DNA from: a bacterium
GTDB lineage: Bacteria > SAR324 > NAC60-12
Length of the DNA stretch: 64,000 nt
NCBI GenBank assembly: GCA_965209155.1
Contig: OZ242383.1
Coordinates: 544,001-608,000 of the forward strand
Direction of reading: 5' to 3'
A model generated the notes under the pieces. That model was not told where the DNA came from and did no database searches. It saw nothing but the letters and a program-made list of their open reading frames with translations. Positions 16,655-48,517 of this stretch are shown piece by piece (positions within the stretch are counted from its first letter, which is position 1; each line of letters starts with the position of its first letter). Both the position numbers and the translations under genes were made by a program.

Positions 16655-17533
16655 TTATTTTGAAGAGCGGGGATCGGAATCTTTCTCTTGGAGGAGAGCA
16701 CGCAGCCGTTCGACTTCCGCAAGCGCTTTTTCTTCTCTTGCCAAGGCAATTTTTTCTCTTGCCAAGGCGTTTTCTTTCAGTTGTCGCTCTTTTTCTTTCA
16801 GTTGTCGCTCTTTTTCTTTTTGCTGACGCTCTTGTTGGAAGCTTTTCAGGAGAAACGGTTGGTAGAGAGGATCCTCGATCAATGTTTCAAAGGCCACCTG
16901 TTTTTCTAAATCCTCCAGACGAAAGGCGAAACGATCCAAAACCCGGGAATGAATCACCTCAGGCTCTTTCTGCTTCATCCTCTCATAAACCCCTTGCTCA
17001 TTGAGGAAATAGAAGGCGGTGTGCTTGCGCAAACGGTCTAATATATAATATTCCGCCACCCCTGCTTTGGCGTATTCTTCTTTTTTGTGGACCGTATCCC
17101 GTTCTACCTCTGCGGGAGTCGAGTCGGATAAAAACTCAATACAGAGATCACAAACTCCCCTAAAAGAACGGTCCAGGGGTTTGGCCTCGACAGGATTGGA
17201 GTGGAGAATCACGGCCAGATCCGGTTTGCGAATACTCACCTTTTGCTTTCCCACCGCCAAACGAAAGCCCATTTCCAATACCATCATCCGTCCGATGGGA
17301 AAGACGGTCAAATACTCTTTTAATAAGTGGAAGAACCATTCATAGAGGGAGATGCTTAAAAAATCGGGCATAGGCTTTTCCTCCAAGAGTCCATTGTTCC
17401 ATTCATATGAACCATCCGGGTGTTCATAATACGTCTTCCAATACTCGGCTTCACTCGCCCTGAGCGGCTCCTTGGCAGAAGGAGGCAACCGTGTTGGAGA
17501 AGAGTGATTTTTGACGGATTCTAAAGAAGTCAT
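16655..17533 (-). CDS. Uma2-family (DUF820) endonuclease-fold protein with coiled-coil tail, copy 1
   Basis: RKPDLAV, IEFLS, KKEEYAKAGVAEYYILD; heptad-repeat tail; start uncertain. Confidence 0.85.
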   Translation of the reverse strand: MTSLESVKNHSSPTRLPPSAKEPLRASEAEYWKTYYEHPDGSYEWNNGLLEEKPMPDFLSISLYEWFFHLLKEYLTVFPIGRMMVLEMGFRLAVGKQKVSIRKPDLAVILHSNPVEAKPLDRSFRGVCDLCIEFLSDSTPAEVERDTVHKKEEYAKAGVAEYYILDRLRKHTAFYFLNEQGVYERMKQKEPEVIHSRVLDRFAFRLEDLEKQVAFETLIEDPLYQPFLLKSFQQERQQKEKERQLKEKERQLKENALAREKIALAREEKALAEVERLRALLQEKDSDPRSSK

Positions 17534-17854
17534 GATGCCCTCGATGAGAAGGAGTGGTGAAATTTGTCGTCTTTTCAAAAACATAACACATTGTGTGGAG
17601 GACAGCAATTTCTATGTTGATCGACTTTAAATAAATCGGACCCATTTTCACAATTATGTTATGTGATTGCTGTCCATTTTCAGCAGCGGTGACGTTGCTG
17701 GATTCTCTTTGATAAATAATTCTGTTGACTATTGATTACTATTTTATTACTGTTCCTTTTCAACACAGGTAACAATGCCCGATGAATCATGCGAAATCGA
17801 TGCGTCAAGCAGCATCATTGATTTCTATTTGATATCTAAAATGGCAGGAGGACG

Positions 17855-20800
17855 ATGAAAGGCAAAATCAGCAAGCATTCCGTCGAAAATCTGTCGTGCG
17901 AGAGAAAAGACCGCTTCCTGTGGGACACGGAGTTGCCGATGTTCGGCTGTAAAATAACCCCCAAGGGCAGACGGGTTTATCTCCTGCAATATCGCATCAA
18001 GGGACGCCTGAGGCGCTATACCATTGGCACGCATGGGATTTTGACCGCCAAAGAAGCCCGCCACATTGCCAGGAACCTGCTGCATGAGGTGGTCCTGGGT
18101 CGTGATCCGGCGGATACGAAGAATAAAAAAGGAGATCAAAACGATAAATTGTCTCCTGGACCTCCAAAAACGGTTGTGAACAACACGAAGTTGGTTTCCA
18201 GTGGGGAAAATGCAGAGATTCCGGGTTATTCACTGGAGGAGGTCATTTTTGAAAGTGGGCGGACCTGGCTTTGGCGCGGCAAGCGGCAAAGCGATGGGCT
18301 TTGGGTTCTGATCAAGGGAGCGGCTTCCTCTGAGCAGAGCGCGCAGGAGCTGGCGGAAATACGGCATGAGCATGAGATCACCCAGGCTCTTAAGATCGAT
18401 GGGGTCCTCAGGTCAGAGGAAGTGGTGCAATATGAAAACGGATCAGTCTTGATCCTGGAAAACACGGAAGGGCTTCCTTTAAGAAAGCTGATGGATGCCG
18501 CCCGGCTCGACCTGCTGGACTCGCTTAAGGTAGCGCTTTCACTGATCGGTATTCTGAAAGAAGTGCACCAGCAGGGCCTCCTGCATAAAATGATCAACCC
18601 ATTAAATATTTTTGTCGATCCGGGATCGGGAAACATCAAACTGAGCGGCTTCGGCCTGGCCACTCGGCTGCCCCGGGAAAATTTGACGACGTTGAGTCCC
18701 CAGCTTAGCGGGGAAACCCTGCCCTATATCTCCCCCGAGCAGACCGGGCGGATGAACCGGGTGCTCGATTATCGCAGTGATTTTTATTCTCTGGGCGCTA
18801 CCCTTTATGAACTTTTTACAGGGAGAGTACCTTTTGGGTCCCGGGAGACCATGGAAATCATCCACGCTCACATTGCCCGGCAGCCTGTACCCCTGGACCA
18901 GATGGCGCCGCAGGTGCCCAAACCCCTTTCTAATATGGTGATGAAACTGATGGCCAAGCGTGCCGAGGCGCGCTACCAGAGCCACTCGGGCCTTTCAGCT
19001 GATCTCCTGGCATGTCTGGATCAGCTCGAAAACCAGGGGAGCCTGTCCGACTTTCCCCTGGGCCGCCAGGACGTTCCCAAAGAACTGCAGATCGCCCCGG
19101 GGCTTTATGGCCGGGAGGATGAAATTACTGATCTGGAAGCCGCCCTGGAGCGAGTCAGCCAGGGAGCGACCGAGATGGTGCTGATCTCGGGAAGCGCCGG
19201 TGTCGGCAAAACCGCCCTGGTCGGTGAAATTCACCGGTCTATTGCCCAAAAAAACGGTTATCTCATCTCCGGCAAGTTTGACCAGCTCCGGCATAATATC
19301 CCTTACAGCGCTTTGATCCAGGCGCTGCGGGGACTGATCCGGGAGGTATCAGTCGAAGAGAAATCCGGAATGGAGCGTTGGAAAAGCAGGATACGGGCAG
19401 CGCTGGGCCCCAACGGACAACTGATGGCCCGGGTGATCCCGGAACTGGAACAGGTGATCGGCCCGCAACCCCCGCTGCCGGAAATGGGAGCGCTGGAGTC
19501 CCAGAACCGCTTCACTGCCGTTTTACTGGATTTCATCTCTGTTTTCTGTGAAAAAACCCATCCCCTGGTTATTTTTCTGGACGACTTGCAGTGGGTGGAC
19601 GCCGATACCCTCAAGCTGGTGGAACGCATCGCTCAGCATCCCGAGAGGAAACCTCTGCTTTTCCTGGGAGCCTATCGCGAAAACGAGGTGGAGGCCGATC
19701 ATCCGTTGTCGATCAGTTGTGAGGTGATCAAAAAATCTGGCCAGCCGCTGCAAACGATCCTCTTAAAACCTCTGAACTCAGAGAACATCTTACAACTGCT
19801 CGTCCATACCTGCCACTGCCGTCCTGAGGAGGCCAAACAGCTGGCCGAGGTCCTGGTGCGCAAAACCGGCGGCAATCCCTTCTTTGTGAGCCAGTTCTTG
19901 ACCGTACTCTCCGAGAAGGAGCTGATCCGCTACTCCCCTGAGGAAAAACGATGGACCTGGGAGCTGGCTGCCATCGAATTCCTGGCGGTGACCGAGAATG
20001 TGGTGGATTTGCTGGTTGACCGGCTCCACCGGTTTTCCTTTGAAACCAGGCGACTCTTGAGCCTGGCGGCCTGCATCGGCAATATTTTTGATCTGGAATC
20101 GTTGGAACTGATCAGCGGAGCCGGAAGCGGGGAGCTCTATGAGAACCTGTTGCCGGCCCTGGAAACCGGGTTGATCCTCGGTTTTTCCCGGGCTCCGCAG
20201 CTGGATAATCCTCCCGCCGGAGCGAGCATGGAAGGCGGCAGCTACAGCTTCCTGCATGACCGGGTGCAGCAGGCTGCCTATGCCCTCATTGCCGAAAAGA
20301 AGAGAAAGCCGGTCCATCTTCAAATCGGTCAGACCCTGCTCAAGCAATACGTTCCCGGGAAAAGTGACGCTCTGCTTTTTGACATCGTCCACCATCTCAA
20401 CCTGGCCCGGAGGGTGAAGGATAAATGGAAAGACCGATTGAATCTGGCGGAACTCAACTTGGAAGCCGGTCGTCAGGCCAGAGCGGCTTCGGCTTTTGAA
20501 CAGGCCCTGGAATACTTTACCCTGGGCCTGGAGCTTTCAGGAGCCGCCGCCTGGAAACGGCAATACCCCCTGACCTTATCCCTGCATGAGGAAGCCACGG
20601 AGATGTCATGGCTCTGCGGCCGCTTCGAGTTGATGGAGAAGCTGGCGGGTGCCGTAAAAGACAACGCCCGAGAGGACCCGGACCTGGCCACTGTTTATCA
20701 ATGCCGGATCAAGAACTACACCACCCAGGGTGAATTAAAGAAGGCCCTGAAAACGGGCGAAGAAATTCTGGAGAAATTGGGGTGTAATCTGAATCGTCTG

Positions 20801-23800
20801 TCTCTCGACCAGTGGCAGCAGACCCTCGTTCAAATCAAATCCGGCCTGGCCGGTAAAAGCGTCGAAGACGTGATGCGCTTTGAGCCGCTCACCCAACCTG
20901 ATGCCGAGGTCCTGGTCCCTATCCTCTATGAACTCCATTTGGCCTATGGCCAGGCTGGGGTTACTTTGGATGACGGTCTTTGGCAGCCCATCGCTTCAAA
21001 ACGTATCTCTTTTCTGCTCAATCATTTTCATCCGAAACATTCACCCGAATCCTATGGTTTCCTTGGAAGTATATATTGCTTGTATATGCAGGATTTTGAA
21101 TTTGGTTATGAACTCGGTCGTCTGGGCATACAGCTCATGGAAGCGATTGATCTGAAGGAAATAAACTGTAGAGTTTCCAAGGGTTTCAACGGCTATGTCC
21201 GATTCTACGGGGAGCCGCTATCGGCGTCATTGGAGCCCTTGCTGGAAGCTCATAAGATGGGAATCGAGACGGGAGATTTCTTCAATGCCGGTCGTGCAGC
21301 CGTCGTAAGATGTCAGATTGCCTTTATGTGCGGGAAGGAGCTGAACTGGCTGAAAGGGGAATTGTCAACGTTGAAACTTGCTCTCAAGAAGATCGATTAT
21401 ATTATCGGGTCTCCCCAGCTCGAAATGCTGACGAAGGCGATCATGATTCTAATGGAGGAACCTGCGAGCCTGTCGACCGCCATCATGGATCAATACCATA
21501 GGGTGACGGGTGCAGAGTACCGATATGGTGACCAGAGCAGTTTTAATTACCATAAGCTGGTGCTGCAAACCCTGTTCGAAGAATACGAAGCAGCCCGTGA
21601 GACGGTTTTTGAATTGATCAGCCTGATGAAAACCTATAAGGATCCCCTTATTGATCCCCTGGCCAACTGCTACCAATCCCTCGCTCTCCTGGCGGTCTGC
21701 GGCCAGGTGCCTGACGGGGAAAAAGAGGAGATCCTCACCCAGGTTCATGACAATCAGGATATGTTGGAAAAATTGGCGCGCTGCGCACCGTCTAATTATT
21801 TGCATAAGTATCATCTGGTGGAAGCCGAACGGATGAGGGTTTTGGAGGGTCAAAGCGACGCGATCCTATCTCATTATGACCAGTCCATCGCTTTGGCCAG
21901 AGAGAGCGAATTTATCCACGAGGAAGCCCTGGCCAATGAACTGGCAGCCAGGTACTTGCTCAACCAGGGGCAAAATGACGCCGCCAGGTCTTACCTGCGC
22001 TCAGCAATGGAGAAGTACGAAGCCTGGGGGGCAAAACGGAAGGTCGCGCATCTGAAGTCTCGATATCCCGGGTTGATTGCCGATGATCACACTGAAACGG
22101 TGGCGTCTCCTTCGGCCAACCTGGATCTGGTGACGATGCTCAAAGCCTCGGAGGCCATCTCCAGTACCATCGAGTTGGAACCGCTGCTGGAGATCCTGCT
22201 CCGCATTCTCATGGAAAATGCCGGGGCCCAGACAGCAACCCTGATTCTGGAAACCGAAGGTCAGTCTCTCATTGCTGCCCGCGGGAGCACCGAGCAGGTC
22301 GAATGTTTTCTACCGCTTTCCCTGCCTGTGGAAAAGGCTGGATCCCTCTCCCTCTCGGTCATCTCTTGGGTGAAACAAACCCGGGAGCATCTGGTTTTAG
22401 ACAACGCCGCCCGGGAGGAACGGTTTGTCTATGATGATAATATTCAGAGGGAACGTCCTAAATCAATCCTGTGCGCACCGATCACTCACAAGTCATCTTT
22501 GAGCGGCATAATTTACCTGGAAAATAACCTGGTTGAGGGAGCCTTCACCTCCCGGCGATTCGAGGTGATCAAACACCTCACCTCCCAGATCGCCATTTCT
22601 CTGGAAAATGCCAGGCTTCACGAAAACCTCAAACGAACCGAAGCGGAATACCGGGGAATATTTGAAAATGCCACCGAAGGCATCTACCGGACGAGCCAGG
22701 ACGGCCGCTTTCTGAGCGCCAATCCAGCGATGGCCCGGTTATTCGGGTACTCTTCCCCGGATGAGCTGATGGCATCCATCACCGACGTCGGGCACCAGCT
22801 TTATGTGAATCCGGAGCGGCGTCATCAGTTCCTGGATCTCATCCGGCAACGACGCCCCGTTTCGGATTTTGAGGTAGAATTTTTCCGTAAAGACGGCAGC
22901 ACCTTCTGGGCTTCCCTGCACGCCCGCCCAGTCTATGATGAGACCGATGCCTTGCGCTTCATCGAAGGGATTATTTCCGACATAACGGAGCAGAAAAACC
23001 GGATGGAAGCCCTGAATGAAGAAAATGTCCGCCTGAAGGCCAACATTAAGGAACGTTATCGCTTCGGAAAGATCATCGGTAAAAGCCCCGTGATGCAGGA
23101 GATTTATGAATTGATCTTAAAGGCGGCGGCTAGCGATGCGGGTGTCATTGTATACGGTGAATCAGGCACCGGTAAAGAACTGGTGGCCGAAGCCATCCAT
23201 AAGATGAGTGATAGAAAAGAAAAACCCTTTGTGACCATCAACCTCGGTGCCGTTCCGGAAACCCTCTTGGAAAGCGAGTTTTTCGGCTACAAAAAAGGGG
23301 CCTTTACCGGAGCCAATGCGGATAAGCGCGGCCTGCTCCAACAGGCAGACAAAGGCACGCTTTTCCTGGATGAATTGGGTGAAATCGGCCCCAATCTGCA
23401 AGCTAAACTGCTGCGTGCTATTGAGGGCGGAGGGTTCACGCCAGTAGGCGGACTTGAAGCGGAAACCTCCGATTTTCGCGTCGTTGCCGCCACCAATAAA
23501 GATTTAAAACAACAGGTGAAAAAGGGATTGATGCGGGAGGATTTCCTCTACCGCATCCACATTATCCCTATTCACTTGCCGCCTCTCCGGGAACGTAAAG
23601 AGGATATCCCCCTTTTGATCGAGCATTTTATGCAAAACCACCCTTCCTCAAAGAACCTGCCCAAAATCACCCTCCGTGTCATGGAAGCTCTGACCTCCTA
23701 TGATTGGCCGGGAAACGTCAGGGAACTGATCAACACCCTGTATCGCTATGTCACTCTGGGAGAGGTTGATTTTCTGGGGGAACGGATAAATTCCAAAATC

Positions 23801-24004
23801 AGCGAAACTTCAAATTTCGGAGATACCATCAACCCCAGGAAAATGGCGCTGGATCAGGCCATCGCGGATAGTGAAAAAGCGGCGATTCTCAATGCTCTGA
23901 AAAATTTTGAGGGCCACAAGGTAAAAACCGCTGCCGCCCTGGGAATCTCCCGGGCCACCCTCTTCAACAAAATGAAAAAGTACGGAATTCGGACCAGCAC
24001 CTGA
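17855..24004 (+). CDS. 2049-aa multidomain sigma54-dependent activator: integrase arm-type DNA-binding domain, pseudokinase, STAND/AAA ATPase, helical repeats, GAF, PAS, sigma54 AAA+, Fis HTH
   Basis: LWDTELPMFG...YRIKG...TIGTHG..TAKEAR...GRDP; YISPEQTGRMN; GSAGVGKT / FLDDLQW; FLHDRVQQAAY; IYLENN; IFENATEGIY; GESGTGKE, GAFTGA, FLDE, WPGNVREL; ALGISRATLFNKM. Confidence 0.9.
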   Translation: MKGKISKHSVENLSCERKDRFLWDTELPMFGCKITPKGRRVYLLQYRIKGRLRRYTIGTHGILTAKEARHIARNLLHEVVLGRDPADTKNKKGDQNDKLSPGPPKTVVNNTKLVSSGENAEIPGYSLEEVIFESGRTWLWRGKRQSDGLWVLIKGAASSEQSAQELAEIRHEHEITQALKIDGVLRSEEVVQYENGSVLILENTEGLPLRKLMDAARLDLLDSLKVALSLIGILKEVHQQGLLHKMINPLNIFVDPGSGNIKLSGFGLATRLPRENLTTLSPQLSGETLPYISPEQTGRMNRVLDYRSDFYSLGATLYELFTGRVPFGSRETMEIIHAHIARQPVPLDQMAPQVPKPLSNMVMKLMAKRAEARYQSHSGLSADLLACLDQLENQGSLSDFPLGRQDVPKELQIAPGLYGREDEITDLEAALERVSQGATEMVLISGSAGVGKTALVGEIHRSIAQKNGYLISGKFDQLRHNIPYSALIQALRGLIREVSVEEKSGMERWKSRIRAALGPNGQLMARVIPELEQVIGPQPPLPEMGALESQNRFTAVLLDFISVFCEKTHPLVIFLDDLQWVDADTLKLVERIAQHPERKPLLFLGAYRENEVEADHPLSISCEVIKKSGQPLQTILLKPLNSENILQLLVHTCHCRPEEAKQLAEVLVRKTGGNPFFVSQFLTVLSEKELIRYSPEEKRWTWELAAIEFLAVTENVVDLLVDRLHRFSFETRRLLSLAACIGNIFDLESLELISGAGSGELYENLLPALETGLILGFSRAPQLDNPPAGASMEGGSYSFLHDRVQQAAYALIAEKKRKPVHLQIGQTLLKQYVPGKSDALLFDIVHHLNLARRVKDKWKDRLNLAELNLEAGRQARAASAFEQALEYFTLGLELSGAAAWKRQYPLTLSLHEEATEMSWLCGRFELMEKLAGAVKDNAREDPDLATVYQCRIKNYTTQGELKKALKTGEEILEKLGCNLNRLSLDQWQQTLVQIKSGLAGKSVEDVMRFEPLTQPDAEVLVPILYELHLAYGQAGVTLDDGLWQPIASKRISFLLNHFHPKHSPESYGFLGSIYCLYMQDFEFGYELGRLGIQLMEAIDLKEINCRVSKGFNGYVRFYGEPLSASLEPLLEAHKMGIETGDFFNAGRAAVVRCQIAFMCGKELNWLKGELSTLKLALKKIDYIIGSPQLEMLTKAIMILMEEPASLSTAIMDQYHRVTGAEYRYGDQSSFNYHKLVLQTLFEEYEAARETVFELISLMKTYKDPLIDPLANCYQSLALLAVCGQVPDGEKEEILTQVHDNQDMLEKLARCAPSNYLHKYHLVEAERMRVLEGQSDAILSHYDQSIALARESEFIHEEALANELAARYLLNQGQNDAARSYLRSAMEKYEAWGAKRKVAHLKSRYPGLIADDHTETVASPSANLDLVTMLKASEAISSTIELEPLLEILLRILMENAGAQTATLILETEGQSLIAARGSTEQVECFLPLSLPVEKAGSLSLSVISWVKQTREHLVLDNAAREERFVYDDNIQRERPKSILCAPITHKSSLSGIIYLENNLVEGAFTSRRFEVIKHLTSQIAISLENARLHENLKRTEAEYRGIFENATEGIYRTSQDGRFLSANPAMARLFGYSSPDELMASITDVGHQLYVNPERRHQFLDLIRQRRPVSDFEVEFFRKDGSTFWASLHARPVYDETDALRFIEGIISDITEQKNRMEALNEENVRLKANIKERYRFGKIIGKSPVMQEIYELILKAAASDAGVIVYGESGTGKELVAEAIHKMSDRKEKPFVTINLGAVPETLLESEFFGYKKGAFTGANADKRGLLQQADKGTLFLDELGEIGPNLQAKLLRAIEGGGFTPVGGLEAETSDFRVVAATNKDLKQQVKKGLMREDFLYRIHIIPIHLPPLRERKEDIPLLIEHFMQNHPSSKNLPKITLRVMEALTSYDWPGNVRELINTLYRYVTLGEVDFLGERINSKISETSNFGDTINPRKMALDQAIADSEKAAILNALKNFEGHKVKTAAALGISRATLFNKMKKYGIRTST

Positions 24005-24277: not shown

Positions 24278-24370
24278 AGCATCTCCTGTTGTGAGGTTTC
24301 TACAAAAATGTAGAGTTATTTATATTTTTTGTCAAGCGCAATGTGTCCATAAATAATAGAGTTAAAAAGT

Positions 24371-24478
24371 GTCAAAAATTTTAGACTTAAGTATAAAAAT
24401 TTAGATTTTAGTCTATAAACCTTGAATATCAATGATTTAACCATGATTTCCGATCGAGTTAAGTCAAAATTTTTAGAC
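24371..24478. promoter_or_regulatory. Candidate enhancer (UAS) repeats and IHF site of module 1
   Basis: Near-palindromes GTCAAAAATTTTAGAC (24371-24386) and GTCAAAATTTTTAGAC (24463-24478), degenerate copy at 24391-24406; TATCAATGATTTA (24427-24439) fits the IHF consensus WATCAANNNNTTR. Confidence 0.6.
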
Positions 24479-24555
24479 ACTTGCTTCGCATACCCAACCC
24501 TCCCCTTTTTAAAATTAGTTAATAATTACAGTAAGTTAACTGAATAGCCTCAAAT

Positions 24556-24572
24556 TTGGCACACAGCTTGAA
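24556..24572 (+). promoter_or_regulatory. Sigma54 -24/-12-like promoter, module 1 (GA variant at -12)
   Basis: TTGGCACACAGCTTGAA (GG-N10-GA), 80 bp from the UAS-like palindrome and upstream of a co-oriented operon. Confidence 0.55.
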
Positions 24573-24675
24573 GAAGATGAACATAAAGTTTCTGGGATGC
24601 TGTATCCCTAAGCTGATTGTCCATCCATCCCCTTCCGAAGCAGTGGATGGGGAAAATTTTTCATTTTATCTGATG

Positions 24676-24951
24676 AAACCACGTCCTTTGGGCGGGGATC
24701 CGAATGCGGCCCAGCCCAGTTGTGGTCAGAGACAATCGGCTTTGCCAGAAACGTGCACGTGTTCGTAATCGTGCTTGTGCACGTGCTCGACAGAAACGTT
24801 CCCGATTCCTTTGAGAGGGGTTTCCGAATAGAAGAGACGCCAGGGAATTTAGGGTTCTCTGAGATGCCGTTTCGTTCACGAGCACGGCTCACGAGTACGA
24901 TCACGAACCACCCTTTCTAGGGGCCTATCAAAACCACCTTCTCAGGTGGAC
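24676..24951 (+). mobile_element. Non-autonomous element with IS200/IS605-like terminal hairpins and a GTGCTC core, copy A
   Basis: AAACCACGTCCTTTGGGCGGGGATC...ATCAAAACCACC; diverged inverted copy at 46761-47047. Confidence 0.55.
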
Positions 24952-25064
24952 GGCTAGTCAAGGTGGATTCTTTAATCACTGTCTTATCAGGAGAAGCCTA
25001 TGGGGAAATCATGTTAGCAGAGAAAGAATGTTTATTCCTTCAATCTCAAAAAACTAGATTTGGG

Positions 25065-25161
25065 AGATAAATATGAAATCAATCGTATTTGGAGAAATTA
25101 TTATGAAAAAGATAAATATGAAATCAATCGTATTTGGAGAAATTATTATGAAAAAGATAAA
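25065..25161 (+). repeat. 45-bp tandem duplication of the RBS/start region
   Basis: AGATAAATATGAAATCAATCGTATTTGGAGAAATTATTATGAAAA present twice plus a partial third unit. Confidence 0.9.
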
Positions 25162-26545
25162 AATGAAAAAAAGGTTCGGGTTTATAGGGACTTTGATGGT
25201 CGCTATCTTCGCCCTGACGGGTGTCGCGCATGCGGATGGCCACCTCAAATTCCCGATTGGCGAAGGCGGGTTCAACTGGGACAGCTACCACGCCTTTGCG
25301 AAGGAGCACGACTATACTGGACAGCAACTCACGATGACCACAAGGGTGACAGGTTCCGGCGAGGTACTCATAAATAATATGATGGCCTATTTCAATGAAG
25401 CGACCGGTGCCAAGGCCAAACACGTCGGCTCGCAGACCTACAAGCAAGATGTGGTGGCTAACCTCGAAGGAGGAACACCACCGGAAATCACCGGAATCCA
25501 GCTGCCAGGTTTTGGCCAGGACTTGGCCAGGCGCGGTTTCTTTACCCCTCTTTGTGAAGATCCGAACGACTGCGAGTTGGCCGACTGGATTCGCGACAAC
25601 TACGCCTCTGGCGAGTCCTGGGTTGACTTAGGCATTTGGGAAGGTCCGGACGGGAAGAAGCATTTTTACGGTTTCCATTACTACACCTACATAAAGTCGA
25701 TGGTCTGGTACGTCCCCGAGAACTTCGAGGACGCGGGCTACAAAGTCCCGCAGACCATGGCAGAACTGAAGACGCTGGAAAATCGGATCGTTGCCGACGG
25801 TGAGACCCCGTGGTGCCATGGTCTGTTTGCTGAGGGTTCGACGGGTTTTACGGGAGGGGACATGATGGAGGAGTTTTTGCTGCGCAGAGAGCCCATTGAA
25901 GTGTACGACAAGTTATACGCCAACGAAATTCAACTTGATGACCCCCGAATCGTTGCCGCACTCCAGGAATTGGGCGAAATTATCCTCAGCGAAACAAAAG
26001 TTGACGGTGGCCCGAGTGCTGTGGCCAACCTCGATTGGCGAACAGCAGCGGTGGGTATCTTCAGCAACCCGCCGAAGTGCTACATGTACCATCAGGGATC
26101 GTACGTTACGTCGTATTTACCAGAAACTAAAAAATTCGGCGAATGGGACTTCTTCTACTTTCCGCCCCGAACCAACAGGCCGGATCTTGCCAAATCCCCA
26201 GTGGCTGGTGGAGGTGCCTTTATGACCATCAGCAAAGACACCCCAGTAGCCCGTGGGTTTATCGAATGGCTAAAGACGCCGATTGCGCACGAGCTATGGA
26301 TGGCTCAGGGCGGCTTCCTGACGCCGCACAAGCACGTCAACACGGAGGTTTTCGTAGACGCGGCGACTGCCAAGATGAATGAGATTCTCATGAACGGGGA
26401 CCCATTCCGGTTCGACCCAGGCGACGTGTTTCCCGCCGCCGTTGGCGGCGTGTGCTGGAACCGGATGATGGTGGATTTTGTCGGTGGCAAGCCTGCCAAA
26501 GAGGTGTTACGCGGCTGCCAAGAGGTCTGGGACAATCTCAAGTAG
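25148..26545 (+). CDS. Sugar ABC transporter substrate-binding protein (AglE-like)
   Basis: Signal peptide ending AHA-D; KSMVWYVPENFEDAGY, TPWCHG, CYMYHQGS; start uncertain because of the duplicated leader. Confidence 0.85.
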   Translation: MKKIKMKKRFGFIGTLMVAIFALTGVAHADGHLKFPIGEGGFNWDSYHAFAKEHDYTGQQLTMTTRVTGSGEVLINNMMAYFNEATGAKAKHVGSQTYKQDVVANLEGGTPPEITGIQLPGFGQDLARRGFFTPLCEDPNDCELADWIRDNYASGESWVDLGIWEGPDGKKHFYGFHYYTYIKSMVWYVPENFEDAGYKVPQTMAELKTLENRIVADGETPWCHGLFAEGSTGFTGGDMMEEFLLRREPIEVYDKLYANEIQLDDPRIVAALQELGEIILSETKVDGGPSAVANLDWRTAAVGIFSNPPKCYMYHQGSYVTSYLPETKKFGEWDFFYFPPRTNRPDLAKSPVAGGGAFMTISKDTPVARGFIEWLKTPIAHELWMAQGGFLTPHKHVNTEVFVDAATAKMNEILMNGDPFRFDPGDVFPAAVGGVCWNRMMVDFVGGKPAKEVLRGCQEVWDNLK

Positions 26546-38637: not shown

Positions 38638-39702
38638 TTAAACCACTTGGAGCACAGGAGGTTGATAAGGTGTTTGATCGAGGATTAACCTCCTAGCCAA
38701 AATCACCAGTTTACGAGCGATGGCCACAATGGCCCGTTTGCCTCCGATGCGGCAAGCCAAGCGTTGATATTTGGTTTTAAAATAAGGATCTTTACGCACC
38801 AGAGTCCAAGCCGCTTCCACCAACATTCCACGCAGATCGGCTTTGCCGGAACGAGTAATATGGCCCATGCGAATCTGATCAGAACTGGAAAACTGAGAAG
38901 GGGTTAAGCCCACATAAGCGGCGATTTGATCACTTTGAGCAAAACGCGTGAGATCTTCCAATTCTAATAAAAAGGTCATCGCTGTGAGCAAACCCACTCC
39001 GGGGATGGATCTTAAAAACTGAACGTTGAGTTGGTGTTGAGGGCTCTTGGCCAGTTGTCGAATGGCTTGAGTCAGACGAAGAATTTGCTCTTGGAGAAAA
39101 TGGAATTCTTCCAGAAGCATTTGCATACTCAAACCAAAGCGAGAGTCGCTTTGAGCCAAGTTTGTTAATTCCAATAAAAAACTTTGAGTCCAAGAACCTT
39201 GGTCGCTGGAGAGCTTTTGTCCATGAAAACTTAACTCGGCTTTGATGCGATTTTGAACACGAACTCGATTGCCCATGAGTTGACGACGATGGCGAATGAG
39301 TTTGCGTTGCTGCAAATTAGCTTCACTCGGAACATAAACACTTTTGAGCAAATCTCTGGAAAGATAAAAGGCTAATTTCTTGCTGTCTTTGCGATCGGTT
39401 TTTACTCGATTACCTGACTCTTGAGGAATCAAACTGGGAGGGGTGACCAAACAATCCACCCCCCAATGGCTCAGATGACGAGAGAGCCAGTAGCCACAAT
39501 AACCGGCTTCATAGACCACTTTCATCTCCAATGATTTGAAAGGATTCAAAAGTTTTTTTAAGGCCGACCAACTCGCTGGAATGGATTGACTGCTCAACTC
39601 GCAATCAAAGCTCCGAATGGTGACATGAAAGGTTTTTTTATGCACGTCGATTCCTATATAAATGGTTTGGCCTAATAATGATTCAATGTTAATCTTTTTC
39701 AT
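38638..39702 (-). CDS. IS110-family recombinase/transposase
   Basis: IGIDVHK, VYEAG, KTDRKDS (DEDD); SIPGVG; GLTPSQFSS; G.ITRSG. Confidence 0.95.
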   Translation of the reverse strand: MKKINIESLLGQTIYIGIDVHKKTFHVTIRSFDCELSSQSIPASWSALKKLLNPFKSLEMKVVYEAGYCGYWLSRHLSHWGVDCLVTPPSLIPQESGNRVKTDRKDSKKLAFYLSRDLLKSVYVPSEANLQQRKLIRHRRQLMGNRVRVQNRIKAELSFHGQKLSSDQGSWTQSFLLELTNLAQSDSRFGLSMQMLLEEFHFLQEQILRLTQAIRQLAKSPQHQLNVQFLRSIPGVGLLTAMTFLLELEDLTRFAQSDQIAAYVGLTPSQFSSSDQIRMGHITRSGKADLRGMLVEAAWTLVRKDPYFKTKYQRLACRIGGKRAIVAIARKLVILARRLILDQTPYQPPVLQVV

Positions 39703-39953: not shown

Positions 39954-42900
39954 ATGGAAATGCCATATACTCAGCAGACTTCCTTGGATCAGCATAGGAA
40001 ACGGTTTTTGACCGATGATCGCTGTCACCAGCATCTTTTTACGGTTCGCTGGCCCCAGGGGTTTGTCTGTCCCGCCTGCGGTCATCATGAGTATTACGAG
40101 GTATCGCTGCGCAAGCTGTTTCAATGCAAACAATGTCATTCCCAAACTTCTGCGACGGCGGGCACGATCATGCACCGGACCCGGACTCCGCTGCGTTATT
40201 GGTTTTGGGGGATTTATTATGTGGCGGCATGCAATGGCGAGACGACGGCTCAACAACTATCAGAAAAAATCGGATTGAATTACTATTCCGCCCGGAGAAT
40301 GCTGGGAAAAATCCATGAAATCGAAAAGGACCAGGGGTTCCTGGGGGATCTGCTGAAAAGCTTCAAAATGCCTGAACCGTCCAAGGAAGAACTCTCTATT
40401 GGACCGGGAATGGAAACGCAATCCAGGCCAATAAAAGGGCCGTATCCACTAAGAGAGCCAACGATTCCAGACAGAAAAAATCCGGAGATTCTGGGTTATT
40501 CGCTGGAGGAGGTCATTTTTGAAAGTGGACGGACCTGGTTCAGGCGCGGCAGGCGGCAAAGGGACGGGCTTTCGGTCCTGATCAAGGGACCAGCTTCCTC
40601 TGAGCAGAGTGCCCAGGAACTGGCGGAAATGCGGCACGAGCATGAGATCACTCAGGCTCTTAGGATCGATGGGGTTCTCAGGGCAGAGGAACTGGTGCAT
40701 TGTGAGAACGGATGGGCGTTGATCCTGGAAAACACCGATTCGCTCCCTTTAAGAAAGCTGATGGATGCCGCCCGGCTCGACCTGCTGGACTCGCTGAAGA
40801 TAGCAGTTTCACTGATCGATATTCTGAAAGAAGTGCACCAGCAGGGCATCCTGCATAAAATGATCAACCCGTTCAATATTTTTGTCGATCCGGCATCGGG
40901 GACGGTCAAACTGAGCGGCTTCGGCCTGGCCACCCGGTTGCCTGAGAAAAATTTGACGACGTTGAGTCCTCAGCTGACCGGGGAAACCCTGCCCTATATC
41001 TCCCCCGAGCAGACCGGCCGGATGAACCGGCCCCTCGATTATCGCAGTGATTTTTATTCCCTGGGCGTCACCCTCTATGAGCTTTTCAGCGGAAGAGTGC
41101 CTTTCCACTCCCGGGAGGCCATGGAAATCATCCACGCTCACATTGCCCGGCAGCCCCTGTCCCCTGACGAGATTGAACCGCAAGTACCCAGAGTCCTTTC
41201 TAATATGGTGATGAAACTGCTGGCCAAGCGTGCCGAGGCGCGCTACCAGAGTCACTCGGGTCTGGCATCCGATCTCCTGGCATGTGTGGATCAGCTCGAA
41301 AACCAGGGGAGCCTGTCCGACTTTCCTCTGGGCCGCCATGATATGCCTGAAGAACTGCAGATCGCCCCGGGCTTTATGGCCGGGAGGATGAAATCACCGC
41401 CCTGGAGGCTGCCCTGGAACGAGTCAGCCAGGGAGCGACCGAGATGGTGCTGGTCTCGGGAAGCGCCGGTGTCGGTAAAACCGCCCTGGTCGGTGAAATT
41501 CACCGGTCCATTGCCCAAAAAAACGGCTTTTTCATCTCCGGCAAGTTTGACCAGCTCCGGCACAATATCCCCTACAGCGCCCTGATCCAGGCGCTGCGGG
41601 GACTCATCCGGGAGATGTCGGTTGCAAACAAACCCGGAATGGAGCGTTGGAAAAACAGGATACGGGCTGCCCTGGAACCCAACGGACAACTGGTGACCCG
41701 GGTGATCCCGGAACTGGAACAGATGATCGGCCCGCAACCCCCGCTGTCGGAAATGGGAGCGCTGGAGGCCCGGAACCGTTTCACTGCCGTTTTACTGGAG
41801 TTCATCGACCTTTTCTGTGAAAAGACCCATCCCCTGGTTATTTTTCTGGACGACCTGCAGTGGGTGGACGCCGATACCCTCAAGCTGGTGGAACGGATCG
41901 CTCAGGATCCGGAGAGGAAACCTCTGCTTTTCCTGGGGGCCTATCGCGACAACGAGGTGGAGGTCGATCATCGGCTGATGATCAGTTGTGAGGTGATCAA
42001 AAAAACAGGTCAGCCTGTGCAAACAATCCCCTTAAAGCCCCTCAACCCGGATGACATCTCACAACTGCTCGTCCATACCTGCCACTGCCGTCCTGAGGAT
42101 GCCAAACCGCTGGCCGAGGTTCTGGTGCGCAAAACCGGCGGCAATCCCTTCTTTGTGAGCCAGTTCTTGAACGTACTCTCCGAAAAGGAGCTGATCGGTT
42201 ACTCCCCCGAGGAAAAACGATGGACCTGGGATCTGGCTGCCATCGAATTCCTGGCGGTGACCGAAAATGTGGTGGATTTGCTGGTTGACCGGCTCCATCG
42301 ATTTTCCTCTGAAACCAGGAAACTCTTAAGCCTGGCGGCCTGCATCGGCAATACCTTTGACCTGGAATCGTTGGAACTGATCAGCGGAGCCGGAGGCAGA
42401 GAGATCGATGAGAACCTGTTGCCGGCCCTTGAAAATGGGTTGATTCTCGGTTTTTCCCAAGCCCCGCAGCTGGATAATCCTCTGGACGGAGCGAGCGCGG
42501 AGAGCGGCAGCTACAAATTCCTGCATGACCGGGTGCAGCAGGCTGCCTATGCCCTCATTGCCCAAAAGGAGAAACAGACGGTCCATCTTCAAATCGGTCA
42601 GACCCTGCTCAAGCAATACGCTCCAGAGAAAGGTGTAGATCTGCTTTTTGACATCGTCCACCATCTCAACCTGGCCCGGAGGGTGAAGGATAAATGGAAA
42701 GAACGATTGCATCTGGCAGAACTCAACTTGAAAGCTGGTCGTCAGGCCAGAGCGGCTTCGGCTTTTGAACAGGCTCTGGAATACTTTACCCTGGGCCTGG
42801 ATCTCTTAGGAGCCGCCGCCTGGAAACGGCATTACCCCCTGGCCTTATCCCTGCATGAAGCCGCCACGGAGATGTCATCGCTCTGCGGCCGCTTCGAGTT

Positions 42901-45900
42901 GATGGAGGAGCTGGCGGGTGCTGTAAAAGACAACGCCCGAGAAGACCCGGACCTGGCCAATGTTTATCGATGCCGGATCCAGGCGTACACAACCCGAGGT
43001 GAATTAAAAAAGGCACAGGAAACGGGCGCGGAGATTCTGGAGAAATTGGGGTATCAACTGAGCCGTCTGTCTCTCGACCAGTGGCAGCAGACCCTCGTTC
43101 AAATCAAACCCAGCCTGGCCGGTAAAAGCGTCGCAGACGTGATGCGCTTTGAGCCGCTCACCCAAACGGATGCCGAGGTCCTTGTCCCTATCCTGTATGA
43201 ACTCCATTTACCATATGACCAGGCTGGGGCTACTTTGGATGACGGTCTTTGGCAACCCATCGCTGCCAAACGCATCTCTTTGCTGCTGAATCATTTTCAT
43301 CCGCAATATTCACCCGAATTCTATATTCACCTTGGATATATATATTGCGGGTTTGTGCAGGATTTTGAATTTGGTTATGAACTCGGTCGTCTGAGCATAC
43401 AGATCATGGAAGCGCTTGATCTGAAGGAAATAAACTGTAGAGTTTCCGGGGGTTTCAATGGTGGGATCCGGTTCTATGGGGAGCCGCTATCGGCGTCATT
43501 GGATCCCTTGCTGGAAACTCATAAGATGGGAATCGAAACGGGAGATTTCGTCAATGCCGGTATTAGCGCTGTCGCAAGGTGTCGAATAGCGTTTATGTGC
43601 GGGAAAGAGCTGAATTGGCTGAAAGGGGAATTGTCGACGTTGAAGCTTGCTCTCAAGAAGATTGATTATATTCTCGGGTCTCCCCAAGTCGAAATGCTGA
43701 TGAAGGCGGTCATGATTCTAATGGATGAACCTTCGAGCCTGTCGAACGGCATCATGGATCAATACGACAGGGTGACAAGTACGGAGTACTCATATTATGA
43801 ACATTGCAGTTTTAATTACCAGAAGCTGGTACTGCAAACCCTGTTCGAAGAATACGAAGCAGCCCGTGAGACGGTTTTTGAAATGATCAACCTGATGAAA
43901 ACCTACAAGGATTCCCTTGTTGATCCCCTGGCCAACTGCTACCTGTCTTTCGCTCTCCTGGCGGTTTGCAACCAGGGGAGCGAGGGGGAAAAGGAGGAAA
44001 TCCTCACCCAGGTTGATGACAATCAGGAGACGTTGGAGAAACTGGCGCGCTGCGCACCGCCCAATTATTTGCATAAATACCACCTGGTGGAAGCCGAGCG
44101 GATGAGGGTTTTGGAGGGTCAAAGCGACGCGATCCTGTCCCATTATGACCAGGCCATCGCTTTGGCCAGAGAGAGTGAATTTATCCACGAGGAAGCCCTG
44201 GCCAATGAACTGGCAGCCAGGTACTTGCTCAACCAGGGGCAGAACGACGCCGCCGGCTCTTACCTGCGCTCAGCAATGGAAAAATACGAAACCTGGGGGG
44301 CAAAACGGAAGGTCGCGCACCTAAAGTCTCGATATCCCGGGCTGATTGCCGATGATCGTGCTGAAGCGGCGTCTCCTTCGGCCAACCTGGATCTGGGGAC
44401 GATGCTCAAAGCCTCGGAGGCCATCTCCAGTACCCTCGAGTTGGAACCGCTGCTGGAGATTCTGCTCCGCATTCTCATGGAAAATGCCGGGGCCCAGACA
44501 GCAACCCTGATTCTGGAAACCGAAGGTCAGTCTCTTATCGCTGCCCGTGGGAGTGCCGAGCAGGTCGAATATTTCCTGCCGCTTTCCCTGCCTGTGGAAA
44601 AGGCCCAATCCCTCTCCCTGTCGGTCATCTCCTGGGTAAAACAAACCCGGGAACACCTGGTTTTGGACAATGCCGCCCGCGAGGAACGGTTTGCCGAGGA
44701 TGATCATATCCAGAGGGAGCGCCCCAAATCCATCCTGTGCGCGCCGATCACTCATCAGTCCGCCTTGAGCGGAATCATTTACCTGGAAAATAACCTGGTT
44801 GAGGGAGCCTTCACCTCCCGGCGATTCGAGGTGATCAAGCACCTTAGCTCCCAGATCGCCATTTCCCTGGAAAATGCCAGGCTTCACGAAAACCTCAAAA
44901 AGGCGCTGGACGAGTCGAAAGCGAGCGAAACCTCCCTGCATGAAGAAAATATCCGTCTGAAGGCCAACATCAAGGAGCGTTATCGGTTCGGAAAGATCAT
45001 CGGCAAAAGCCCCGTGATGCAGGAGATTTGTGAATTAATCTTAAAGGCGGCGGCTAGCGATGCGGGTGTCATTGTCTATGGTGAATCAGGGACCGGTAAA
45101 GAATTGGTGGCTGAAGCCATCCATAAGATGAGTGATAGAAAAGAAAAAGCCTTTGTTCCTGTCAACGCCGGCGGCGTTGCAGAAACCCTCTTGGAAAGTG
45201 AGTTTTTCGGCTACAAAAAAGGGGCCTTTACCGGAGCCAACGCGGATAAGCGCGGCCTGCTCCAATCGGCAGACAAAGGCACGCTTTTCCTGGATGAATT
45301 GGGTGAAATCGGCCCCAATCTGCAAGCCAAACTGCTGCGCGCTATTGAGGGTGGAGGGTTCACGCCAGTAGGCGGACTTGAAGCGGAAACCTCCGATTTT
45401 CGCGTCATTGCCGCCACCAATAAAGATTTAAAAGAACAGGTGAAAAAGGGATTGATGCGGGAGGATTTCCTCTACCGCATCCACATTATCCCTCTTCACT
45501 TGCCGCCTCTCCGGGAACGTAAAGAGGATATCCCCCTGTTGATCGAGCATTTTATGCAAAACTACCCCCCCTCAAAGAACCTGCCCACAATCACCGTCGC
45601 TGTCATGGAAGCTCTGACTTCCTATGATTGGCCGGGCAATGTGAGGGAACTCCAAAATACGTTGCACCGCTACGTTACCTTGAAGAGGCTGGATTTTCTG
45701 GGAGCCCCTTTAAGTGCGCCGGCCCCTTCGCCGGAGATGAAATTTGAACCGATCCGGCCAAATGAAGAGTTGCTCCGAGATGTGGTGGCGCATTTCGAAA
45801 GGGAATATATCCTGAAGCAATTGGAAAGGTACCATTGGAACCGCTCCAAAGTTGCTTCTAAGCTTGGCATTGACCGAAGGACACTTTTTAAAAAGATGAG

Positions 45901-45931
45901 GAGTTATGGGGTGTTTAAGCCCCAAAATTAG
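39954..45931 (+). pseudogene. Second giant sigma54 activator: IS1595 Zn-ribbon/HTH, pseudokinase, STAND ATPase, GAF, sigma54 AAA+, HTH; split by a 1-bp deletion near 41370
   Basis: Colinear paralog of 17855-24004 without the PAS domain. CCCCGGG (41365-41371) versus CCCCGGGG (19095-19102); restoring one G gives a single 1992-aa frame. Confidence 0.85.
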
Positions 45932-47584: not shown

Positions 47585-48517
47585 TCAAGCTATCAGATTT
47601 TTATACTTAAGCCGTTTTCCTTCCATGCCTTTGGCCATTGATTCGATTTGTGCCAGGGTATCAAGCTCTCGCTGATTTTGCCTACCAGCAAATTCCTTAA
47701 CATAGCGATCCAAATGCTTGGCACTCATTTTGTGATATGTCCCTTTGTGTCCCCTTTTGAGCATACTCCAGAAGGAATCAATACCAGCAGTATGGACATC
47801 TCCTCTCACGTATTCATCGTGGCTATGCCGGACAGATTCATGATTAGGAAGCCCCTTATAAACGGTAGCTTCGTCTGTATAAATCATGGAATTTTGTTTT
47901 ACATATTCCTGGATCATCTTCTCAATAACCGGCTTCTTTGTATCTTCCGTTGCGGTGGCTACCACTTGTCCGGTCTCTCGATCCTTAATACCTACAACTG
48001 GGGATTTGCCAACCGTACCCCGTCCCTCTTTCTTCTTTTTAGACTCATGTTTCAGAGATTCCTTACCCCCTACATAAGTCTCGTCCATTTCAACCGGACC
48101 ATTAAAAAGAGGTTTGTTATTATTCCAGCATTCCCGGATTCTATGATTGACAAACCATGCCGTTTTTTGAGTAAATCCCAATTCCCGGTATAGCTTCATA
48201 CTGGCAACCCCTTTGATATTCGTGGCCATCAGATAGAAAGCGAAAGCCCACTTCCGGTAACCAATTTTAGAAGCTTCCATAGCCGTTCCGGTCTTCACTG
48301 AAAAAAACTTCCTACAATCTTTACAACGAAACGGCATCGGATTTTTAGAATTTTCATACTTTATAATTCGCTCGCTTTCACAATGTGCACATCGTATCCC
48401 ATCAGGCCATCGCTTATCAATGAACATTTTTTCAGCCGTCTTGTCATCTGGGAACATGTCCATCAGTTCCAAAACCGTGATGCCTTTTCTGTGATTTTTT
48501 CCGGGTGCTTCTGCCAT
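47585..48517 (-). CDS. IS1595-family transposase
   Basis: RWPDGIRCAHC...FRCKDC; VEMDETYVGG; IYTDE; YHKMSAKHL.RYV.EF. Confidence 0.95.
   Translation of the reverse strand: MAEAPGKNHRKGITVLELMDMFPDDKTAEKMFIDKRWPDGIRCAHCESERIIKYENSKNPMPFRCKDCRKFFSVKTGTAMEASKIGYRKWAFAFYLMATNIKGVASMKLYRELGFTQKTAWFVNHRIRECWNNNKPLFNGPVEMDETYVGGKESLKHESKKKKEGRGTVGKSPVVGIKDRETGQVVATATEDTKKPVIEKMIQEYVKQNSMIYTDEATVYKGLPNHESVRHSHDEYVRGDVHTAGIDSFWSMLKRGHKGTYHKMSAKHLDRYVKEFAGRQNQRELDTLAQIESMAKGMEGKRLKYKNLIA

Follow-up and report, generated by a model that had tools for sequence, protein, structure and literature searches.

A giant sigma-54 activator with an integrase-type arm domain at its N-terminus, and its mosaic gene family, in a SAR324 bacterium

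Domain architecture of the activator

We analysed a stretch of 64,000 nucleotides from the genome of a SAR324 bacterium (contig OZ242383.1, positions 544,001 to 608,000 of the forward strand; hereafter the window, to which all coordinates refer). An open reading frame (ORF) on its + strand, at 17855..24004, encodes a protein of 2049 residues. The protein begins with an arm-type DNA-binding domain of the kind found in P4-like integrases, and continues through a short linker into a pseudokinase, a STAND-type ATPase, GAF and PAS domains, and a sigma-54 activator that ends in a second DNA-binding domain. The parts of the gene are these:

17846..17851, + strand: AGGAGG ribosome-binding site, 3 nt 5' of the ATG; kept in six paralogues of subtype A (defined below)
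17855..18130, + strand: arm-type DNA-binding domain, P4-like integrase type, residues 1-92 (Pfam, alignment, AlphaFold2, Foldseek)
18131..18214, + strand: disordered linker, residues 93-120 (28 residues; block predicted local distance difference test score, pLDDT, 48-53; ratio of nonsynonymous to synonymous substitution rates, dN/dS, 0.69)
18215..19054, + strand: pseudokinase domain, residues 121-400 (HKM in place of the HRD-type motif, SGFG in place of DFG)
19103..19663, + strand: AAA_16 STAND-type ATPase, residues 417-603 (Walker A GSAGVGKT, Walker B FLDDLQW)
19664..22171, + strand: long region between AAA_16 and GAF, residues 604-1439, the most variable part of the core
22172..22603, + strand: GAF domain, residues 1440-1583 (Pfam)
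22646..22990, + strand: PAS domain, residues 1598-1712 (Pfam)
23072..23575, + strand: Sigma-54 interaction AAA+ domain, residues 1740-1907 (GESGTGKE, GAFTGA, LFLDELGE)
23861..23983, + strand: HTH_8 (Fis-type) DNA-binding domain, residues 2003-2043 (helix class ISRATLFNK)

The assignment of the N-terminal domain was made by both sequence profile and fold. Scanned alone, residues 1-120 match PF13356 (Arm-DNA-bind_3) over residues 9-91 with 44.3 bits (E 1.9e-11, cut-off 27), and the match stands at 40.4 bits when the whole protein is the query. The AlphaFold2 model of residues 1-120, for which an alignment of 88 relatives served as input, has block pLDDT values of 95-97 at residues 1-80 and of 85 at residues 81-90. 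Comparison of the fold with the PDB by Foldseek returned as its top three matches 3jtz (target template modelling score 0.91), 3ju0 (0.80) and 3rmp_C (0.90), with root-mean-square deviations of 1.4-1.5 Å; all three are arm-type binding domains of P4-like integrases, and the fourth match reached only E 0.13. A profile made from the arm-domain alignment also recovered 3ju0 by sequence (E 1.4e-6). Since the single-sequence phmmer search of the PDB with the arm domain was weak (3jtz at E 0.18), the identity of the domain is taken from the profile and fold evidence. The residues that are near-invariant in the integrase arm family are retained, among them W23, D24, F30, G31, G38, Y42, Y46, G58, G61 and R69. 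These data confirm that residues 1-92 are a true P4-type integrase arm-binding domain.

The catalytic domain of integrases, Phage_integrase (PF00589), is absent from this ORF: the five matches in the genome all lie elsewhere, and residues 121-2049 are taken up by other domains. The product of 17855..24004 is thus not an integrase. A first-pass annotation of the window, made from the sequence alone, had described an arm-binding domain at residues 1-88 with its own AGGAGG ribosome-binding site, a linker of about 30 residues to a kinase-like domain, no integrase catalytic domain, and DNA-binding domains at both ends of the protein. Each of these points is borne out by the features listed above, with the Pkinase profile matching at residues 142-379 and HTH_8 closing the protein. 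The 5' part of the gene joins the scaffold common to its paralogues at about 18215, where a loose contig end reads into the linker of another cassette type.

The scaffold was compared across the 22 intact paralogues described in the next section. The Pkinase profile scores 83 bits, and the kinase motifs, which were assigned by eye, read HKM(I/V)NP(L/F)N and (S/T)GFG (GFD in one) in all 22; with both catalytic aspartates absent, the domain is not an active kinase. AAA_16 scores 153.6 bits, with G(S/T)AGVGKT and FLDDLQW present in every paralogue, and Sigma54_activat scores 226 bits and is followed by AAA_lid_14 at residues 1912-1970. The Walker motifs of the STAND and sigma-54 domains and the GAFTGA loop are retained in 21-22 of the 22. 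Residues 604-1439 have no family assignment among the Pfam matches listed, and in the PAS region (residues 1601-1700) alignment columns are occupied in 7-10 of the 22 paralogues. The NCBIfam equivalog models for sigma-54 activators (PrdR, AtoC, NifA, NtrC and others) all score below their cut-offs, the best being PrdR with 329.8 against 795 bits. The genome has one rpoN (202.8 bits).

Selection on the fusion and the mosaic structure of its family

A search of all genome ORFs of at least 250 residues by blastp, with the core (residues 121-1430) as the query, found 22 intact ORFs of 1629-2114 residues that are 82.5-85.6% identical over about 1310 residues, together with six pieces of broken family copies. 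The 22 intact genes occupy about 3% of the 4.26-Mb genome. Mean pairwise identity along their alignment is 75-92% in the core, 41-43% over the first 100 residues and 48-55% over the last 100; the synonymous divergence dS is only 0.2-0.3 in the core and about 1.6 or saturated in the C-terminal 74 residues. Low dS in the core beside divergent ends implies that the genes are mosaics, in which a recently expanded or homogenised core is flanked by older ends.

The N-terminal ends are of three types: 12 of the intact proteins begin with the integrase arm domain, eight with a Zn_ribbon_IS1595 head and two with a MerR-type helix-turn-helix. The zinc-ribbon heads match PF12760 with 51-62 bits, match the NCBIfam IS1595 transposase model weakly and partially, and are 20-23% identical over about 136 residues to the IS1595 transposases resident in the genome. 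One of the two MerR-type paralogues (L011) also has a Resolvase domain. Its first 230 residues match the NCBIfam model 'IS607 family transposase' (NF033518) over positions 3-169 of 187 with 122 bits against a cut-off of 110, and are 38-40% identical to two annotated IS607 transposases. The GYCRVSS motif of those two transposases is replaced by GYACVDS in L011 and by GYVCVDS in a genome of the same genus (G001), so that the head belongs to the IS607 sequence family and departs from its catalytic motif; the changed residues are presumably the catalytic arginine and the serine nucleophile, as in gamma-delta resolvase. Three proteins encoded on other contigs also show the MerR and Resolvase fusion, with 85-92% identity over 230 residues. 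This head, a nearly whole transposase with changed catalytic residues, is apparently an intermediate state. On a quick tree of the core, the N-terminal type requires 10 changes (minimum 2; shuffled mean 8.4), and some supported pairs combine different types, for instance a zinc-ribbon and an arm paralogue grouped at 100. With integrase- or transposase-derived heads on about two dozen sister genes, the family points to mobile-element parts having been tamed into regulators repeatedly.

The arm fusion recurs within this genome and beyond it. PF13356 has 15 matches in the genome, 12 in open frames of 1933-2119 residues and three in broken copies (frames of 1059, 207 and 103 residues, the second with a TAG), and none of the 15 coincides with an integrase catalytic domain. 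When residues 1-130 were searched against database proteins of 1126-3586 residues, 46 were returned, the query among them. All but one of the other 45 combine PF13356 with Pkinase and AAA_16, and mostly also with GAF, Sigma54_activat and HTH_8. These 44 proteins are 54-95% identical to the query; seven are encoded on the 4.26-Mb contig of the window and 37 on other contigs, which have 34 distinct lengths.

This recurrence bears on whether the gene is an artefact, an integrase fragment joined to an activator by chimeric assembly or by gene calling. Some 25 family copies at 82-86% identity invite such a join, and the contigs that we found in four public short-read runs are short and fragmented here, none spanning the whole stretch. 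Pieces from other runs nevertheless bridge 17646-17956 and 18042-18255, and the same join stands in 12 intact copies on one contig of 4.26 Mb and on 34 other contigs; we give an artefact practically no weight.

Selection on the domain was estimated with a Nei-Gojobori script from the 66 pairs formed by the 12 intact arm-type paralogues of this one genome. The arm domain has a median dN/dS of 0.248 (dN 0.116, dS 0.484), which compares with 0.69 in the linker, 0.28 in the pseudokinase and 0.21 in GAF. The fusion is maintained under purifying selection, and is neither unique nor neutral. This finding also bears on the view that the head is an evolutionary relic, left where an integrase or insertion sequence landed 5' of the activator and supplied a promoter and start codon, with a DNA-binding domain that is now inert. 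Such an origin would agree with the movement of upstream DNA together with the head (see below), and with the IS607-type head, which is still a whole transposase with changed catalytic residues and looks like an intermediate. Inertness, however, is hard to reconcile with a dN/dS of 0.25 in the arm domain against 0.69 in the adjoining linker, with the retention of the near-invariant family residues, and with 12 intact copies here and 37 on other contigs, all free of stop codons. We consider it very improbable that the domain is a relic, and a remnant of an integrase pseudogene was rejected on the selection and on the conservation of the fusion. Of the two origins that the first-pass annotation had put forward, a domesticated second DNA-binding module is thus well supported: the arm profile matches, the fusion extends to other contigs, and the domain does not evolve neutrally. 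The roles that the annotation suggested for such a module, autoregulation and looping, are considered below as possibilities.

The arm domain has 7871 relatives among 1.84 billion representative proteins. The nearest unfused ones are proteins of 345-420 residues with Arm-DNA-bind_3, Phage_int_SAM_3 and Phage_integrase, whose arm domains are 58-60% identical to that of the window protein. In a quick tree of 86 arm domains, 38 fused ones lie on one side of a branch and 43 integrase ones on the other (Shimodaira-Hasegawa-like approximate likelihood ratio test 87; inner node 96); five short proteins were ungrouped and 95 other short hits were omitted. By this tree the fused domains form a single clade, and the split may reflect one capture event behind all of them. 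We rejected a recent capture from a resident element, as no other ORF of at least 80 residues in the genome resembles the arm domain, and likewise a recent capture of the zinc-ribbon head, given the low identity of the resident IS1595 transposases. A search for related DNA in genome contigs gave one unrelated integrase (L017), and a scan of metagenome contigs yielded the integrases L019 and L020 and an arm fragment that insertion sequences have disrupted (L018). In this last case, on a marine metagenome contig, an arm head at 1468-1701 is 95% identical over residues 1-56 before an inserted element interrupts it, and another transposase-like ORF precedes it; copies of the family are evidently hit by insertion sequences in the wild.

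5' cassettes and the downstream promoter module

From each of the 22 genes, 800 bp of upstream and 1500 bp of downstream sequence were taken for an all-against-all comparison by blastn. The 200 bp or so nearest the gene on its 5' side show homology only within one N-terminal type and are internally repeated. The upstream features of the window gene are as follows:

16655..17608, - strand: Uma2-family gene, adjoining the 5' cassette
17609..17854, + strand: 5' cassette DNA, the intergenic stretch that separates the activator from the divergent Uma2 gene; roughly 200 bp are kept only among arm-type paralogues
17718..17729, + strand: AATTC.GTTGAC block, shared by at least 11 of the 12 regions upstream of arm-type genes
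17732..17747, + strand: distal candidate arm-type site TTGATTACTATTTTAT, with the core CTATTT in at least 11 of 12 paralogues
17818..17838, + strand: proximal candidate arm-type site, made up of 11-bp units, two in tandem (TTGATTTCTAT TTGATATCTA), just 5' of the ribosome-binding site

These comparisons show that the 5' end of the gene is a cassette, in which some 200 bp of upstream DNA that holds direct repeats is followed by the DNA-binding domain and the linker. The second origin named in the first-pass annotation, capture of the promoter and start of an integrase, fits this result, in that the repeat-bearing upstream DNA moves with the arm domain.

In an alignment of the 300 bp 5' of the 12 arm-type genes, only three blocks are present in at least 11: AATTC.GTTGAC (17718-17729), CTATTT (17739-17744) and TATTTG (17826-17831). 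The last two fall within direct repeats set 86 bp apart, ATTGATTACTATTTTAT (17731-17747) and ATTGATTTCTATTTGAT (17817-17833), and the proximal site is itself a tandem repeat of period 11 in 1.9 copies. The repeat units follow the start of the protein. All six proteins of subtype A, which begin MKGKISK, go with TTGAT units, and all six of subtype B, which begin MKDKITK, go with TTGCT units (TTGTT in one), where the candidate site is TTGCTATCTATTTGCTAT. A degenerate 16-mer occurs twice in the window, at the two candidate sites upstream of the gene, with 0.04 occurrences expected. Over the 4.26 Mb, an 18-mer allowed up to two mismatches has 26 matches, and for 22 of these an arm-type gene is found within 1 kb, with the match always on the 5' side of the MK(G/D)KI(S/T)K start; zinc-ribbon genes, MerR-type genes and downstream promoter modules have none. 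The other two types have upstream arrays of their own, AATATCTGTA in 2.7-3.7 copies inside a 139-bp repeat at MerR-type genes, and a 126-bp repeat in 1.9-3.0 copies at zinc-ribbon genes. The AATTC.GTTGAC block is possibly the -35 element of a weak sigma-70 promoter.

Three further observations concern this region. A short G+C-rich hairpin stands 5' of each candidate arm-type site (17679-17702 and 17799-17816), a terminator scan gave three hairpins against 0.3 expected, and the Uma2 gene terminates in a Lys/Glu-rich repeat (QQKEKERQLKEKERQLKE...).

Downstream of the activator gene lie a predicted enhancer and promoter module and the presumed target operon:

24340..24600, + strand: enhancer and promoter module downstream of the gene, with 12 copies in the genome
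24371..24386, + strand: upstream activator site 1, dyad GTC-N10-GAC (module alignment)
24463..24478, + strand: upstream activator site 2, dyad GTC-N10-GAC (module alignment)
24557..24572, + strand: sigma-54-type -24/-12 element TGGCACACAGCTTGAA, whose -12 reads TTGA
25073..26545, + strand: SBP_bac_1 solute-binding protein of an ATP-binding cassette (ABC) transporter, first gene of the presumed target operon

All 12 copies of the module lie 0-2041 bp 3' of a paralogue and in the same orientation. The two dyads stand about 80 and 185 bp 5' of TGGCAC-N5-TTGA, in which TGGCACAC and TTGA are identical in the 12 modules and three letters between them vary in three copies. The C-terminal 80 residues of the paralogues fall into five clusters. 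Clusters 0 and 1 contain the intact owners of modules, and the remaining two owners are one C-terminally truncated and one split gene; clusters 2 and 3 mostly match two other downstream homology groups, one cluster-2 paralogue being without such a match. In the blastn comparison the downstream homology groups are independent of the N-terminal type. In all 11 modules whose owner has a C-terminus, the helix class of HTH_8 pairs with the class of the dyad:

Helix ISRATLFNK: dyad GTCAAAA...TAGAC, 4 modules
Helix ISRAALY(N/V)K: dyad GTCC/GTCA...AGAC, 3 modules
Helix ISRTTLFNK: dyad GTT-N10-AAC, 4 modules

Arm, zinc-ribbon and MerR heads are intermixed within these classes. Physical linkage alone would also yield a correlation of helix and dyad; what argues for recognition of the dyads by HTH_8 is that in each of the two dyads the half-sites change symmetrically, from GTC/GAC to GTT/AAC.

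These results can be set against another proposal, in which the head does not act at its own 5' region; it would bind in trans or at the target enhancer and take part in activation as a looping module or as a further module for enhancer binding. An activator with two DNA-binding domains could form such loops, and the head is kept under selection. The 18-mer site, however, is absent from every downstream promoter module searched, and this module (type 1) occurs with heads of all three kinds, which implies that promoter recognition needs no particular head. We regard such binding elsewhere as improbable.

The solute-binding protein gene is followed by permease, ATPase and oxygenase genes up to about 36841. 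In 16 of 20 paralogues examined, and in both of those in the window, the first downstream gene on the same strand encodes an ABC solute-binding protein; in the other four it is a permease (one), an insertion-sequence transposase (two) or an ORF without a family (one). From these 18 of 22 downstream neighbours, and from the share of the genome, about 3%, that the family occupies, it is probably central to the nutrient sensing of the organism. A defence-type role for the STAND part, in sensing mobile elements, was considered and is unsupported, the output being a predicted sigma-54 promoter before uptake operons. Long inverted repeats (cgtgttcgtaatcgtgc... / ...gtacgatcacgaac) stand at 24650-24960, in the leader of 500 bp that separates the operon from this promoter. 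The leader may form a structured RNA or represent a small mobile repeat; segments of it recur 3' of other paralogues, sometimes inverted. A 45-bp tandem repeat at 25065-25168 (2.3 copies, 98% matches) lies across the gene start at 25073, so that the start-codon region of the solute-binding protein is duplicated.

A model for the arm-bearing activators

We propose, with moderate confidence, that the window protein is a giant enhancer-binding protein. Its domesticated, cassette-borne arm domain would bind the repeats just 5' of the gene that encodes it, and its sigma-54 and HTH_8 parts would drive the operon downstream. The STAND, GAF and PAS part would sense a signal and allow the AAA+ ring to assemble at the dyads. 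The arm domain would bind the candidate direct repeats at 17732-17747 and 17818-17838; the location of these sites, beside the conserved TTGAC box and just before the ribosome-binding site, suggests that binding there could give autoregulation and place the protein at its own locus. At the other end of the protein, HTH_8 would bind the two GTC-N10-GAC dyads at 24371-24386 and 24463-24478, and the AAA+ domain would activate the sigma-54 promoter at 24557-24572 and with it the ABC-uptake and oxygenase operon from 25073. Binding of the candidate repeats by the arm domain is a prediction, and it would serve for autoregulation, for tethering in cis, or for the two together.

Several observations weigh against this proposal. 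The association of sites with cassettes is what physical linkage alone predicts: the copies are homologous, which makes the counts of sites non-independent, and the sequences in which the site patterns were counted are those that had supplied the patterns. The counts consequently show that the sites are part of the cassette, and not that the arm domain binds them. The arm-domain dN/dS of about 0.25 comes from paralogues and could be distorted by gene conversion. No convincing sigma-70 promoter was found in 17609-17854, a scan of 17400-17900 having matched only inside the Uma2 gene. The -12 element of the downstream promoter is TTGA and not TTGC, and the sigma-54 consensus has C where the module has A. 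Related genomes add a further point, since PF13356 has no match in G001, which is of the same genus, and relatives from other genera have the scaffold without any N-terminal DNA-binding domain; the head is thus dispensable for the scaffold as such.

The related genomes also indicate how the family may have arisen. Giants with kinase and STAND domains are present in 20 of 41 of them, and the arm part was matched in the genome of the window only; in addition to G001, four other genomes of the family (G004, G007, G008, G009) lack a PF13356 match. G001, which is 91% complete, has three copies of the zinc-ribbon type and a frameshifted one of the MerR and Resolvase type. Six giants from other genera start at the kinase, have intact HKD and DFG motifs and no sigma-54 domain, and end in a cyclase, SpoIIE phosphatase or histidine kinase output; they are likely to represent the ancestral state of the scaffold. 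In the sample examined, DNA-binding heads, sigma-54 output and loss of the kinase aspartates co-occur in this genus only. The kinase, AAA_16 and GAF giants of G008, G009, G010 and G016 (L005-L010) come with 13-21 search matches per genome.

A more specific possibility is that the heads tether their proteins in cis. Bacterial transposases act in cis, and a model of co-translational binding has been proposed for this behaviour. By analogy, the head, which is made first in coupled transcription and translation, would bind the 5' sites of its own gene and hold the activator at the locus, where it would fire only the sigma-54 promoter a few kilobases downstream; cross-talk would then be reduced among about 25 paralogues that have few HTH_8 and enhancer classes. 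All three recombinase-derived heads would act in this way, re-using the property that underlies the cis action of transposases. The repeat arrays directly 5' of each gene are consistent with this idea, as are the position of the promoter module, 0-2041 bp 3' of a paralogue in the same orientation in 12 of 12 cases, and the sharing of only three HTH_8/dyad classes by the 11 paralogues that have a type-1 module and a C-terminus. On the other side, the candidate sites are 6.7 kb from the promoter. The N-terminal classes are also few, so that tethering sites would be common to several loci, and N-subtype and C-type occur in 15 different combinations across 21 paralogues. The argument is, moreover, an inference throughout, and we consider tethering in cis rather unlikely. 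If it did operate, about 25 paralogues with a core 82-86% identical could run separate uptake operons without cross-talk, while recombination in the homogenised core would be free to re-pair heads, sensors and outputs.

The window protein differs in several respects from known systems. The P4-like integrase arm domains (the HPI integrase 3jtz, the HAI7 integrase 3ju0, and 3rmp) share with the window protein their fold, Pfam family and N-terminal position; in the integrases the arm is followed by core-binding and catalytic domains, and the window protein has a sigma-54 activator in place of both. Enhancer-binding proteins of the NtrC, NifA, PrdR and AtoC type resemble it in Sigma54_activat with GAFTGA, the lid domain and a C-terminal HTH_8, and possibly in the candidate dyad enhancers some 80-185 bp 5' of a putative TGGCAC-N5-TTGA promoter, whereas the window protein has in addition a regulatory part of about 1,700 residues and a second, recombinase-derived DNA-binding domain at its N-terminus. 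The kinase, AAA_16 and GAF giants of related genera, for which the NCBIfam TOMM kinase/cyclase fusion (TIGR03903) is the nearest named model, have their scaffold domains in this order too and are 35-43% identical in the kinase region. They start at the kinase and keep HKD and DFG, whereas the family described here has lost both aspartates (22 of 22) and gained DNA-binding ends. IS607 and IS1595 transposases are the donors of the two sister heads, which differ from them by their in-frame fusion to the activator scaffold and, in the zinc-ribbon heads, by the missing DDE domain of IS1595.

In eukaryotes, transcription factors of the AP2/ERF, THAP, BED and Pax types derive from transposases or integrases. 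The window family follows this principle, well known in eukaryotes, by which a transcription factor re-uses as a module a DNA-binding domain from a mobile element; the present case is bacterial, with three recombinase classes on one scaffold in one genome and presumed sites beside the gene. The titles and abstracts that we searched contain no bacterial case like these recombinase-derived heads on sigma-54 activators, and the listed papers that matched on domestication concern, as far as their titles and abstracts go, eukaryotic elements or transposase biochemistry only. All of the domains are known; the architecture and its pattern were not found in the titles and abstracts searched. With three unrelated recombinase classes on one scaffold in one genome, and presumed sites that still adjoin the genes, the family offers a testable model for the birth of regulators from 5' insertions, for how near-identical sigma-54 activators avoid cross-talk, and for the role of a second DNA-binding domain on an enhancer-binding protein.

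The window contains a second member of the family:

39954..45931, + strand: second paralogue, with an IS1595-type zinc-ribbon head; two ORFs, 1-nt deletion

Its two ORFs, 39954-41585 and 41444-45931, are separated by a deletion in a G run near 41372, which reads CCCCGGG-C where an intact paralogue has CCCCGGGGC; the frameshift may be genuine, or an error in sequencing the homopolymer. The gene is flanked by transposase genes of the IS110 and IS1595 families (38638-39702 and 47585-48517), and the IS1595 transposase, of 310 residues, has at least six near-identical copies in the genome. For the region 17300-19300, pieces at least 99% alike occur in three public runs from different studies, X5, X6 and X7 (72, 56 and 49 pieces), labelled marine metagenome, sponge metagenome and a coded organism, which hints that the organism is marine and possibly sponge-associated.

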